Shown: in pieces, positions 5,276 through 7,399 of the stretch
Numbering within the stretch: position 1 is the first letter of the stretch
Layout: every line of letters begins with the position of its first letter
Source: a virus
Direction: 5' to 3' (one strand)
DNA: 11,560 nt
Virus genome (UHGV): UHGV-0176440
Notes under the pieces: generated by a model
Told to the model about the DNA's origin: nothing
Databases searched by the model: none
The model's input: only the letters and a program-made list of their open reading frames with translations
Translations under genes and position numbers: made by a program

Positions 5276-5986
5276 TCAAAGTGCCTTTGCATACTTCTGA
5301 GAAATCTTCGTAAGCTGCTCAATATCAGCCTGCATAGCAACCTTCTTCTGCGTTTCATATGCAGAAATAAGGTCTTTCATAGCCTGAAGCTCTCTTGAGA
5401 GATACAACTTAGCACTATCAAGCTGCTTGTTACGTGATGCCAAGATGTTCTGTCTAGCAAGTTCACAGAGTTCTTCATCGCTCTTATCGGTCATGTAAAT
5501 AAACTGACCAGCACCTCTTGAAGCTTTAACCATCTTCACAATTCGATATCCATCAGGAAGACTACTAATCGCGGCTGGGATGTTTTCTGGATAAATACCA
5601 AAACCGTCATTGTCTTCGTATTGGTAATAGACAAATGGTTTCTGTGACAATTCATCCTGAATCTCAAATTCTGACGGCTCAATAGCTGATTGCATCAAGG
5701 TAACTTTGCTGTAAGCGTCATCTAATCTAAGGCGCTGTTCTTTTAACTGTGGGTAATATTCACGCTCAAGATTAAATAGTGCTTCAGTTTTGCATACATC
5801 AGGCATCTCTTGAGATTCAGGAGCCACAAAGGTAACTTGCTTTGGTGACATCTTTAGCGATTGCTCAAGCTCAATACGCTTGTCATGCTCTTGACGCTGG
5901 ATAGTGATAGCTGGATGCTCAGTCTGTGGTGACCAGTCGCCAAAACTATCAATCTTTTTACCGTTAATATATAAATCGTTTGTCAT
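5276..5986 (-). CDS. Hypothetical protein (236 aa) with helical/coiled-coil C-terminus
   Basis: ORF with SD AGAGGAAA upstream of ATG; no recognisable catalytic motif. Confidence 0.65.
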   Translation of the reverse strand: MTNDLYINGKKIDSFGDWSPQTEHPAITIQRQEHDKRIELEQSLKMSPKQVTFVAPESQEMPDVCKTEALFNLEREYYPQLKEQRLRLDDAYSKVTLMQSAIEPSEFEIQDELSQKPFVYYQYEDNDGFGIYPENIPAAISSLPDGYRIVKMVKASRGAGQFIYMTDKSDEELCELARQNILASRNKQLDSAKLYLSRELQAMKDLISAYETQKKVAMQADIEQLTKISQKYAKAL

Positions 5987-6014
5987 TGTTTCATTTCCTC
6001 TAAGTGTGTGGTTA

Positions 6015-6092
6015 TTTCTTAATAGAGCACCTTCAACGCCAATACACTTAGAAGATGACTTAACGATTTATTAAAGATGCTCTATTAAGAAA
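6015..6092. repeat. Perfect 15-bp inverted repeat (TTTCTTAATAGAGCA / TGCTCTATTAAGAAA) separated by 48 bp
   Basis: Arms at 6015-6029 and 6078-6092 are exact reverse complements; located in the upstream region of the 236-aa gene. Confidence 0.8.
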
Positions 6093-6102
6093 AGCCCTAA
6101 AC

Positions 6103-6146
6103 ATAGGTGATTCGGATATTCATGGAATCATCCTCATCTGTGAAGG
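6103..6146 (+). repeat. Copy A of a roughly 40-nt dispersed repeat with an internal hairpin (TGATTC-11nt-GAATCA)
   Basis: ATAGGTGATTCGGATATTCATGGAATCATCCTCATCTGTG matches 11465-11508 (ATAGTTGATTCGGATGTTCTAGGAATCATCCTCATACGTG) at about 36 of 41 positions, same orientation. Confidence 0.8.
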
Positions 6147-6220
6147 GCTTTGAAGGTTTGCTTTAACGTTAACGAAGTTTCAGGAAAAACTTTCTTTAAA
6201 AGCTCTGTTTAAAAACTCTT

Positions 6221-6250
6221 AAAGAAAACGCCCTAATCATGAGTTAGGGC
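6221..6250 (-). terminator. Rho-independent terminator (minus strand) downstream of the 107-aa/micro-ORF unit
   Basis: Minus-strand RNA GCCCUAA-cucauga-UUAGGGC followed by GUUUUCUUU (plus-strand stem 6230-6236 / 6244-6250, A-rich 6221-6229). A weaker hairpin plus U-tract lies at about 6393-6412. Confidence 0.55.
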
Positions 6251-6474
6251 AAAGCTGTAAGGGTTCAATAATGAATGATTAAGCACTTTTTGATATATAG
6301 CCTATCTAGTGGGCTAAATAGGCCATGTAGCGAAAAGCATTGCACCTTTCAGAATAACTATCCCTAGATGTAGATGGAATTGTTGAAAGAAATAAGAGAG
6401 AATTGCTCTCCCATACTTAAAATTATGGCATATTTAAGGTTATTTGTCAACAGCTTTTTAACAGATTGGTAACA

Positions 6475-6552
6475 TTAATTCTTATTTACCGTGTTACCTA
6501 CCCAGCAACCAACAAATAAACCCAAAGCTGTCCAAGCAATTATTAAGCCCAT
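6475..6552 (-). CDS. Unannotated micro-ORF, 25-aa hydrophobic peptide (MGLIIAWTALGLFVGCWVGNTVNKN)
   Basis: ATG overlaps the stop of the upstream 107-aa ORF in a TAATG arrangement (translational coupling). Single predicted transmembrane-like helix. Not in the ORF track because of length. Confidence 0.35.
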   Translation of the reverse strand: MGLIIAWTALGLFVGCWVGNTVNKN

Positions 6553-6875
6553 TAATGCACCACCTTCGAATCCGTCACCAAAATATTGTCAGCGTACAAA
6601 ATTGCTATAGCTGCCTTGAGATATCTTTCAGGGCTAACGCTGTATCGGTTCGTTTGCTCGATAACCAATCTTTTCATGTTGCTGTCTTTAATTGGTAGCA
6701 TCATTCGAGGCTCGTTAAACTCCACCGACTGAATAAAATCTTCAATTGCTTCTGAGTTTTCAGCCATGAGCTTTAGCAGCTTGTCAAAGTCAATGCTAAC
6801 ACCTACATCAGTGAAAGCCTGAATCATCATAGCGGTGTCGCTATCAACGAAAATTTGCATTGGGTGATTATTCAT
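6552..6875 (-). CDS. Hypothetical acidic protein (107 aa)
   Basis: ORF with SD AGAGGAAT 8 nt upstream of ATG; no recognisable motif. Confidence 0.6.
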   Translation of the reverse strand: MNNHPMQIFVDSDTAMMIQAFTDVGVSIDFDKLLKLMAENSEAIEDFIQSVEFNEPRMMLPIKDSNMKRLVIEQTNRYSVSPERYLKAAIAILYADNILVTDSKVVH

Positions 6876-7012
6876 TTTTAAATTCCTCTAAAACACATCT
6901 TAAATCTGCCAAAATAGCCATTCTGAGGCCAGTAACCATGCGGGTTACAGAGGGAGTGAGACACCTTAGTAATAGGGTAGCTCATCTTTGAGTCTCACTC
7001 ATTCTCACAGGC

Positions 7013-7399
7013 TTACACAGACGCTTTAATCTTGTAGTATTGACTGCGTGATAAGCCGTATTTCTCAGAAATATAACTTTGTGATTGTCCTTTGGTGATT
7101 GCATCAATGATTAAATCTTTATTGTATCTGTTGCCATTGGTTTTGTGCTTGTCACCACTTTTAATAGAGTTGAAATTCTCAATTAATTTAATGGCGTCTT
7201 TAAGGTCGTCTTCGTAAGCATAATCAAAACCCCTGATAAACTCGAAATCACCATTATCTTTTTGTGCTTCAGTCCAGATATCAAATCTTGAGGCTAATTG
7301 CTGGTGGGTAAACTTGGGTTTATTGGTTTCTGTTATGTCTTTCCAGACTCTACCGTCAAATCTTACCAAATGGTCACGATGTTTATAAAAGTCATACAT
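7013..7399 (-). CDS. Putative DNA-binding protein with C-terminal helix-turn-helix (128 aa)
   Basis: ORF-track ORF 7013-7432 starts at TTG; the internal ATG at 7397-7399 has AGGAGG just upstream and overlaps the HNH gene stop (TAATG). C-terminal segment NRYNKDLIIDAITKGQSQSYISEKYGLSRSQYYKIK looks like a resolvase/terminase-small-subunit-type HTH. Confidence 0.6.
   Translation of the reverse strand: MYDFYKHRDHLVRFDGRVWKDITETNKPKFTHQQLASRFDIWTEAQKDNGDFEFIRGFDYAYEDDLKDAIKLIENFNSIKSGDKHKTNGNRYNKDLIIDAITKGQSQSYISEKYGLSRSQYYKIKASV

Follow-up and report, generated by a model that had tools for sequence, protein, structure and literature searches.

This analysis focused on a very small open reading frame (ORF) in the UHGV virus genome UHGV-0176440, which was studied as a single strand of 11,560 nucleotides (nt), referred to here as the window and corresponding to an island of about 11.5 kb. 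On its minus strand, the gene for an acidic protein of 107 amino acids (aa; net charge -6) is followed directly by an ORF of 25 codons, the micro-ORF, which specifies the hydrophobic peptide MGLIIAWTALGLFVGCWVGNTVNKN and is the final cistron of the island's minus-strand operon. The stop codon of the 107-aa gene and the start codon of the micro-ORF overlap in the sequence TAATG, and the final codons of the upstream gene contain AAGGTGGTG, a Shine-Dalgarno (SD) sequence with one mismatch (coordinates are collected in Table 1). The peptide has a mean Kyte-Doolittle hydropathy of 2.0 over a 17-residue segment, as predicted for a single membrane-spanning helix, and its glycines are spaced in the pattern G11-x3-G15-x3-G19. 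In a first-order Markov simulation based on the composition of the window, the chance that a TAA stop forms TAATG and leads into an ORF of 20 aa or more was 1.6%, falling to 0.04% per gene when a transmembrane (TM)-like 17-mer was additionally demanded, so the micro-ORF is improbable by chance even in a single sequence.

No coding sequence was annotated at this position (PGAP) in any of the 17 RefSeq loci fetched, and five variants of the peptide, looked up as exact strings, were absent from a collection of 15 billion proteins. A full-text literature search with the peptide strings found no paper, profile searches of Pfam-A and NCBIfam with three alleles (A, B, and C, see below) gave no family at E <= 10, and tblastn of the peptide against phage genomes gave no match. 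The initial annotation of this DNA had described the TAATG overlap, the acidic upstream protein, and a single-helix hydrophobic peptide that standard annotation would miss, and had taken the two genes to be translationally coupled; the comparisons reported here agree with it on all of these points. The micro-ORF is very likely a real, translated gene, and there is a good probability that its product is a membrane peptide. The locus as a whole is probably best described as a real, selected, translationally coupled small membrane-peptide gene, and not as a classical toxin-antitoxin pair.

Conservation of the micro-ORF

The comparison set comprised 107 homologous loci, among them 17 RefSeq loci of E. 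coli (76-97% DNA identity), 3 loci from other Escherichia species, 80 metagenome loci, two metagenome contigs identical to the window, and six contigs carrying the two most distant homologs of the 107-aa protein (60% and 41% identity). Twelve further copies of the micro-ORF, including one additional variant, were recovered from IMG/VR by scanning for a conserved downstream 16-mer. A small ORF whose ATG overlaps the upstream stop codon was present in 103 of the 107 loci, the overlap being TAATG in 99 and ATGA in four, with an identical relative frame in both forms. The exceptions were a locus with a frameshifted upstream pseudogene (L018), one at the end of a contig (L104), one with an internal deletion (L079), and one that had lost its stop codon (L009). 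A G-rich, SD-like core (GGTGG, GAGG, or GGAG) lies 7-9 nt 5' of the ATG in nearly all of the tabulated contexts, two rare upstream variants (three loci) having none of these cores or only a weak one. The core is kept even though the upstream reading frames end differently (SKVVH, SVRVH, GVNE, or the end of a 74-aa ORF). Together, the overlapping codons and the SD-like core in the last codons of the upstream gene point to translational coupling.

The 70 loci with a type A peptide vary in both DNA (46 unique sequences) and protein (24 variants); all copies have exactly 25 codons, and the stop codon alternates between TAA and TGA at one fixed codon position. The ratio of nonsynonymous to synonymous differences (pN/pS, pooled Nei-Gojobori) was 0.29 in frame, compared with 1.09 and 1.37 when the remaining sense frames were read. 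These values pool pairwise comparisons of related, recombining sequences and are descriptive, representing neither independent events nor a formal test; the contrast between the frames is nevertheless clear. The same method applied to the 107-aa gene gave 0.34 in frame, against 0.84 and 1.43 off-frame. None of the 46 type A sequences has a stop within the micro-ORF frame, while all 46 have stops in each of the other two sense frames. Synonymous diversity is high (pS 0.48), and seven residues (I4, T8, L10, G11, G15, C16, and N20) show synonymous changes only, with four codons in use for L10 and three for G11. Substitutions in the core of the peptide exchange one hydrophobic residue for another. 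The pattern indicates that the micro-ORF is under purifying selection at the amino-acid level, similar in strength to that on its annotated 107-aa neighbor. The initial annotation had proposed looking for conservation of the frame with synonymous-biased change among homologs, and this is what was observed.

Four types of peptide occupy this position, with lengths of 21, 22, and 25 aa. All are hydrophobic, with best 17-residue hydropathy values of 2.0-2.8, and all have a short polar tail containing K or R. A small-xxx-small motif is present in every allele, at positions 11/15 or, in type B, 12/16; in types A and C and in the L021 peptide it is extended to G/S-x3-G/S-x3-G/S, while the A' and B alleles carry one GxxxG only. 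The type B peptide, MELVIICFVLIGMIAGASIKV, has 21 aa and lies in the same slot with the same TAATG overlap (21 loci with this exact sequence, 26 if close 21-aa variants are included). Types A and B were both found paired with one and the same C-terminal allele of the 107-aa protein, so the peptide gene and the 107-aa gene recombine independently. Type C, MTLIILWVLLGIVLSFAISMER, has 22 aa and an ATGA overlap, and occurs in L023-L026 beside an upstream gene of 41% identity. Another arrangement was seen in L021 and L022, which belong to the 60%-identical island type: an ORF for a soluble protein of 74 aa has been inserted between the 108-aa gene and the peptide gene, MDLVIAWTMLGLFVGCLIGNEANKN, and both junctions of the insert are again TAATG overlaps. 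That sequences which have themselves been replaced still share their position, coupling geometry, length class, and physico-chemical character is the strongest evidence for a membrane peptide as the product and as the object of selection.

Alternative explanations

The initial annotation had likened the arrangement to small toxin/immunity or membrane-peptide modules. A toxin/immunity pairing with the 107-aa protein is not supported. Such a pairing would require the hydrophobic peptide to act as a membrane toxin, with either the upstream protein, which is acidic and has a predicted ribbon-helix-helix (RHH) fold, or an RNA as the antidote. The size of the peptide (21-25 aa, well under 60) and its single-TM hydrophobicity do fit type I toxins. 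Those of E. coli include Ibs (18-19 aa), ShoB (26 aa), DinQ (27 aa), and TisB (29 aa), and the resemblance extends to their single hydrophobic helix, their polar or charged C-terminal end, and the frequency with which they are missed by annotation. However, a type I toxin is expressed from a promoter of its own, with a structured and repressed 5' untranslated region and an antisense or adjacent small RNA (sRNA) as antitoxin, and is not coupled to an upstream ORF. The peptide gene, by contrast, closes a protein operon as its coupled final cistron and, with its overlapping ATG and an SD-like core inside the upstream gene, is not an independent unit. No promoter or terminator for an antisense RNA was found on the plus strand in a scan of positions 5900-7100, and the predicted duplex between the micro-ORF and an adjacent sRNA candidate (described below) was no better than that of shuffled sequences (z +0.15 to +1.05).

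A type II operon, with an RHH antitoxin gene ahead of the toxin gene, was also considered. The AlphaFold2 model of the 107-aa protein (pLDDT, a model confidence score, of 81) is a tandem RHH fold, so that an upstream protein with a DNA-binding type of fold is predicted, but the protein is acidic and has no antitoxin family by sequence. Its model is closest to TraY, DndE, and single-chain Arc, and not to a known immunity protein. Searches of Pfam, PHROGs, NCBIfam, and PADLOC gave no match for it, a sequence-profile search of the PDB was also empty, and tblastn against phage genomes gave none; about 3500 close relatives exist, nearly all of them Escherichia proteins named "hypothetical protein". 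The other member of the pair is not a protein toxin of known fold, has no match in Pfam or NCBIfam, and to our knowledge no type II toxin is a TM peptide of 25 aa. Nor are the two genes inseparable, given the 74-aa gene that stands between them in L021 and L022, where the peptide gene is coupled to this gene instead, and the occurrence of alleles A and B with one C-terminal allele of the 107-aa protein. A toxin/immunity module is accordingly regarded as quite improbable.

It is also conceivable that the peptide itself is functionless and that the act of translation matters, for example by preventing Rho-dependent termination up to the promoter/operator block that follows, or by modulating the downstream promoter. 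The ORF ends 21-25 nt before the -35 box of this very conserved promoter in all peptide types, regardless of the length of the ORF, and the DNA directly after the stop codon is more conserved than the ORF, both of which would be expected under such a model. What tells against it is the selection on amino acids (the low in-frame pN/pS, the seven residues that are invariant despite synonymous changes, and the conservative replacements in the core) together with the hydrophobicity and small-xxx-small motif kept in four divergent alleles, and its probability is put even lower than that of the toxin/immunity module. A programmed -1 frameshift, which would make the ORF a membrane anchor on a fraction of the 107-aa protein and not an independent gene, agrees with the -1 frame of the micro-ORF relative to the upstream gene in both the TAATG and ATGA geometries. 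Such a fusion was rejected: at no locus do the final 90 nt of the upstream gene contain a slippery heptamer (X XXY YYZ), a stop lying 10-13 codons 5' of the ATG closes the micro-ORF frame in 98 of 105 loci, both the ATG and the SD-like core are conserved, and the upstream partner in L021 is a different gene. It is considered extremely improbable.

A chance ORF, hitch-hiking in conserved DNA or in a region constrained by the opposite strand, has hardly more in its favor and is already close to refuted. Small ORFs are common here, 800 bp containing 13 of at least 20 aa, and one antisense frame has a lowish pN/pS (the three antisense values are 0.81, 0.41, and 1.69). Against this, the synonymous diversity shows that the DNA is not frozen, both other sense frames are closed in every type A sequence, and the start codon, SD-like core, and stop position are all kept, for an arrangement with the low chance expectation given above. 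The antisense frames contain stops in 46, 7, and 10 of the 46 sequences, respectively, on which ground an antisense-strand gene was rejected. Nor does the peptide fit a holin or pinholin: no lysis cassette is evident in the island, and known holins, whose genes adjoin that of an endolysin, are far longer (60-150 aa) and possess one or more additional TM segments or domains.

The downstream region and the surrounding island

Table 1. Coordinates of the micro-ORF and of other features (window positions, unless a different locus is named)
Feature	Position	Strand	Remarks
Gene for the 107-aa acidic protein	6875..6552	minus	cistron directly upstream of the micro-ORF
SD-like AAGGTGGTG	6566..6558	minus	7 nt 5' of the micro-ORF ATG
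TAA stop of the 107-aa gene	6554..6552	minus	read from sequence
TAATG overlap (TAA of the 107-aa gene and ATG of the micro-ORF)	6554..6550	minus	read from sequence; kept across loci
Micro-ORF ATG	6552..6550	minus	first base is the last A of the upstream TAA
Micro-ORF, 25 codons and TAA (6477..6475)	6552..6475	minus	product MGLIIAWTALGLFVGCWVGNTVNKN, predicted single-pass membrane peptide
Most conserved DNA of the intergenic gap	6474..6422	minus	begins directly after the micro-ORF stop
Sigma-70-type promoter	-35 TTGACA 6450..6445; -10 CATAAT 6427..6422	minus	17-nt spacer with TG
Promoter-to-terminator unit (candidate sRNA or terminated leader)	6415..6221	minus	5' hairpin 6414..6392 (also delimited as 6412..6396); terminator 6251..6229
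Invariant single-stranded GUGCAAUGCUUUUCG	6346..6332	minus	within the promoter-to-terminator unit
Long hairpin	6007-6105	minus	directly 5' of the 236-aa gene's ribosome-binding site
Perfect 12-bp inverted repeat	CTTAATAGAGCA 6019-6030; TGCTCTATTAAG 6079-6090		within the long hairpin
236-aa protein gene	5276-5986	minus
58-aa single-pass membrane protein (MVNLPPELGSPDVWAGGGVGLLAGLLLRYVLV...)	8808..8984	plus	divergent from the operon
Stretch without convincing ORF	about 8985-10554		about 1.5 kb
48-nt direct repeat	9105-9152; 9200-9247		92% identical, 95 nt apart
CTGTTAAR sites	1911, 2679, 6457, 7738, 7897, 9196, 9639, 9757
Inserted 74-aa ORF	L021 6327-6551; L022 718-942		60%-identical island type

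The micro-ORF is followed by a gap of about 500 nt before the 236-aa gene. Column conservation, calculated from 52 unique gap sequences, is highest in the roughly 50 nt directly after the micro-ORF stop, where a near-consensus sigma-70 promoter is located (scan score 11/12). This promoter is the start of a unit of 174-257 nt (39 distinct copies) that comprises a 5' hairpin, the invariant single-stranded motif GUGCAAUGCUUUUCG, a central hairpin with compensatory changes, and an intrinsic terminator at a conserved distance; in the most divergent type (L023-L026) a terminator of different sequence stands at the same place. RNAalifold predicted 29 pairs from 27 sequences, eight of them with compensatory changes. 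The unit is a candidate for an sRNA or for a leader of the structural operon that ends in termination. Nothing was found to connect it with the peptide: there was no pairing signal between the candidate sRNA and the translation-initiation regions of the micro-ORF or the 107-aa, 236-aa, and 58-aa genes, and the window contains no complementary site to the invariant motif elsewhere. Rfam searches, at gathering thresholds and at permissive E-values, revealed no real family; the only scores were microRNA-like ones, which were spurious and due to the long hairpin, with its perfect inverted repeat, that precedes the 236-aa gene.

The island is apparently undescribed and is widespread in E. coli, the region being matched in 467 of 5426 complete genomes (about 9%) and chromosomal in every case. 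The copy in strain MDR_56 (L003; NZ_CP019903, 3288143-3305014) lies between tonB and yciI. Gene order is conserved save for local replacements and insertions. A large serine recombinase is followed by the Dit-like baseplate and tape-measure proteins, proteins of 67 and 236 aa, the intergenic gap, the micro-ORF, and the 107-aa gene, and then by several small genes of DNA-binding or HNH-like type and a small resolvase. The neighbors of the micro-ORF specify a tandem-RHH protein, a helix-turn-helix protein, and an HNH-like protein, and the peptide belongs to the conserved core of this Escherichia island. The Dit-like protein is about 74% identical to its counterpart in Felixounavirus (Felix O1-type myophages), and the tape-measure protein matches PHROG tape-measure families. 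A DNA search of the region against phage genomes gave no match. Judged by this gene content, the island looks like a satellite or defense element directed against Felix O1-type myophages.

Several other features of the island were recorded. The slot of the 58-aa single-pass membrane protein is kept throughout the island types. The protein itself occurs in at least three sequence types, which do not co-vary with the peptide allele, type A having been found with all three. In a hydropathy scan of the other well-supported island proteins there was no clear membrane-spanning segment, p185 being marginal. Many NCBI copies of the 236-aa protein are named "transposase", a name that looks unsupported because the protein has no match in Pfam, PHROG, or PADLOC and none by tblastn in phage genomes; a homolog search with it returned only close Escherichia relatives and no deeper islands. 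The direct repeat of 48 nt lies in a stretch without a convincing ORF that could be an origin or operator region. The octamer CTGTTAAR occurs at eight sites in the window against 1.4 expected (none of 200 shuffles reached eight), and one of these sites falls in the invariant DNA that separates the micro-ORF stop from the -35 box. The octamer is a putative binding site for a regulator and thus at most a candidate operator.

Possible role of the peptide

By its build and gene position, the peptide belongs to the class of small single-pass membrane peptides encoded as coupled terminal cistrons, with no detectable family. Its short N-terminus would lead into a hydrophobic helix (about 17-19 residues) that carries a conserved small-xxx-small face, GxxxG or GxxxS, and then into a short, polar, positively charged tail at the C-terminus. 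Ribosomes that finish the upstream gene would re-initiate on the peptide ORF, and because of this the peptide would be made together with the DNA-binding-type proteins of the operon. It would then insert in the inner membrane, the K/R tail probably remaining cytoplasmic according to the positive-inside rule, and may act by helix-helix packing along the glycine face, either by self-association that perturbs the membrane or the proton-motive force, or by binding a membrane protein that belongs either to the host or to a Felix O1-type phage infecting it. A comparable face is found in TM domain 2 of the phage 21 pinholin S21-68, which has the glycine zipper GxxxSxxxG, a motif linked to homo-oligomeric membrane pores, and which the G/S-x3-G/S-x3-G/S face of peptide types A, C, and L021 resembles in lying on a single TM helix. 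Small operon-encoded membrane proteins such as KdpF (29 aa), MgtS (31 aa), CydX (37 aa), and AcrZ (49 aa) are also similar, being single-pass proteins whose TM helix packs with a larger membrane protein, and some being translationally linked to their neighbors; they differ in that they adjoin or act on an identifiable membrane complex, and they show no sequence similarity to the peptide (Pfam, NCBIfam).

The closest functional precedent is LidI of the Vibrio cholerae PLE satellites, a small TM-domain protein of 66 or 121 aa that was unannotated in PLE 1-3, was found by synteny, has no homology to known domains, and acts at the membrane on the phage lysis program, collapsing the lysis inhibition of the helper phage (PMC7182436). 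PLE is a serine-recombinase-integrated island that parasitizes a lytic myovirus (PMC7182436), and the gene content of the Escherichia island recalls such satellites of lytic myoviruses. By description, both systems have a small TM protein, a predicted one in the case of the peptide, that was overlooked by annotation and is carried on an island with a serine recombinase; they differ in that the peptide is only 21-25 aa, and satellite behavior and an effect on lysis are known for the system of LidI alone.

In the preferred reading, which would make it analogous to LidI, the peptide is an accessory factor acting at the membrane for an island of satellite-like or anti-phage nature, and it would alter the outcome of infection by a Felix O1-type phage through lysis timing, abortive membrane damage, or a block to genome entry. 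That the peptide acts in phage-island conflict at the membrane is put forward tentatively, at somewhat below an even chance. The single most likely sub-mechanism, a specifically membrane-damaging or lysis-modulating effector, is in itself rather unlikely. A bolder proposal, and a slightly more doubtful one, is that the peptide could be a core membrane effector of an undescribed family of Escherichia satellite-like islands directed against Felix O1-type myoviruses, an E. coli counterpart of Vibrio PLE, with a glycine-zipper helix that would collapse the membrane potential or lysis timing in infected cells, or block genome entry mediated by the tape-measure protein.

Several considerations weigh against these proposals, and some of them against the gene itself. 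Translation, membrane insertion, and any phenotype are predictions from sequence comparison, and the pN/pS values are to be read as the descriptive figures they are. The ORF has only 25 codons, and the T-rich codons of an element with 40% GC favor hydrophobic residues. Searches of Pfam, NCBIfam, and phage genomes (tblastn) gave no toxin or small-protein family and no homolog of known function, and the peptide is at least occasionally dispensable, because the ORF or the upstream gene is damaged in L009, L018, and L079. As for the setting, the satellite or defense nature of the island is itself a deduction, PADLOC models did not match the island proteins, a literature search found no published description of the island, and the peptide is not its sole small membrane protein, the 58-aa TM protein being another.

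Proteins of fewer than 30 residues are systematically omitted from genome annotation. If the peptide were indeed a core membrane effector of these islands, few known phage-conflict effectors would be as small as its 21-25 aa. The uncharacterized island around it accounts for much of the potential interest, while the gene itself appears solid and is testable, the comparative data providing ready-made mutants in the form of the natural alleles A, A', B, and C, the GxxxG residues, and a change of the start codon that spares the upstream stop. Felix O1-type phages are used in biocontrol and typing, and if the island is a satellite of, or a defense against, these phages, the peptide and the 58-aa protein would be obvious candidates for activity at the level of the membrane.

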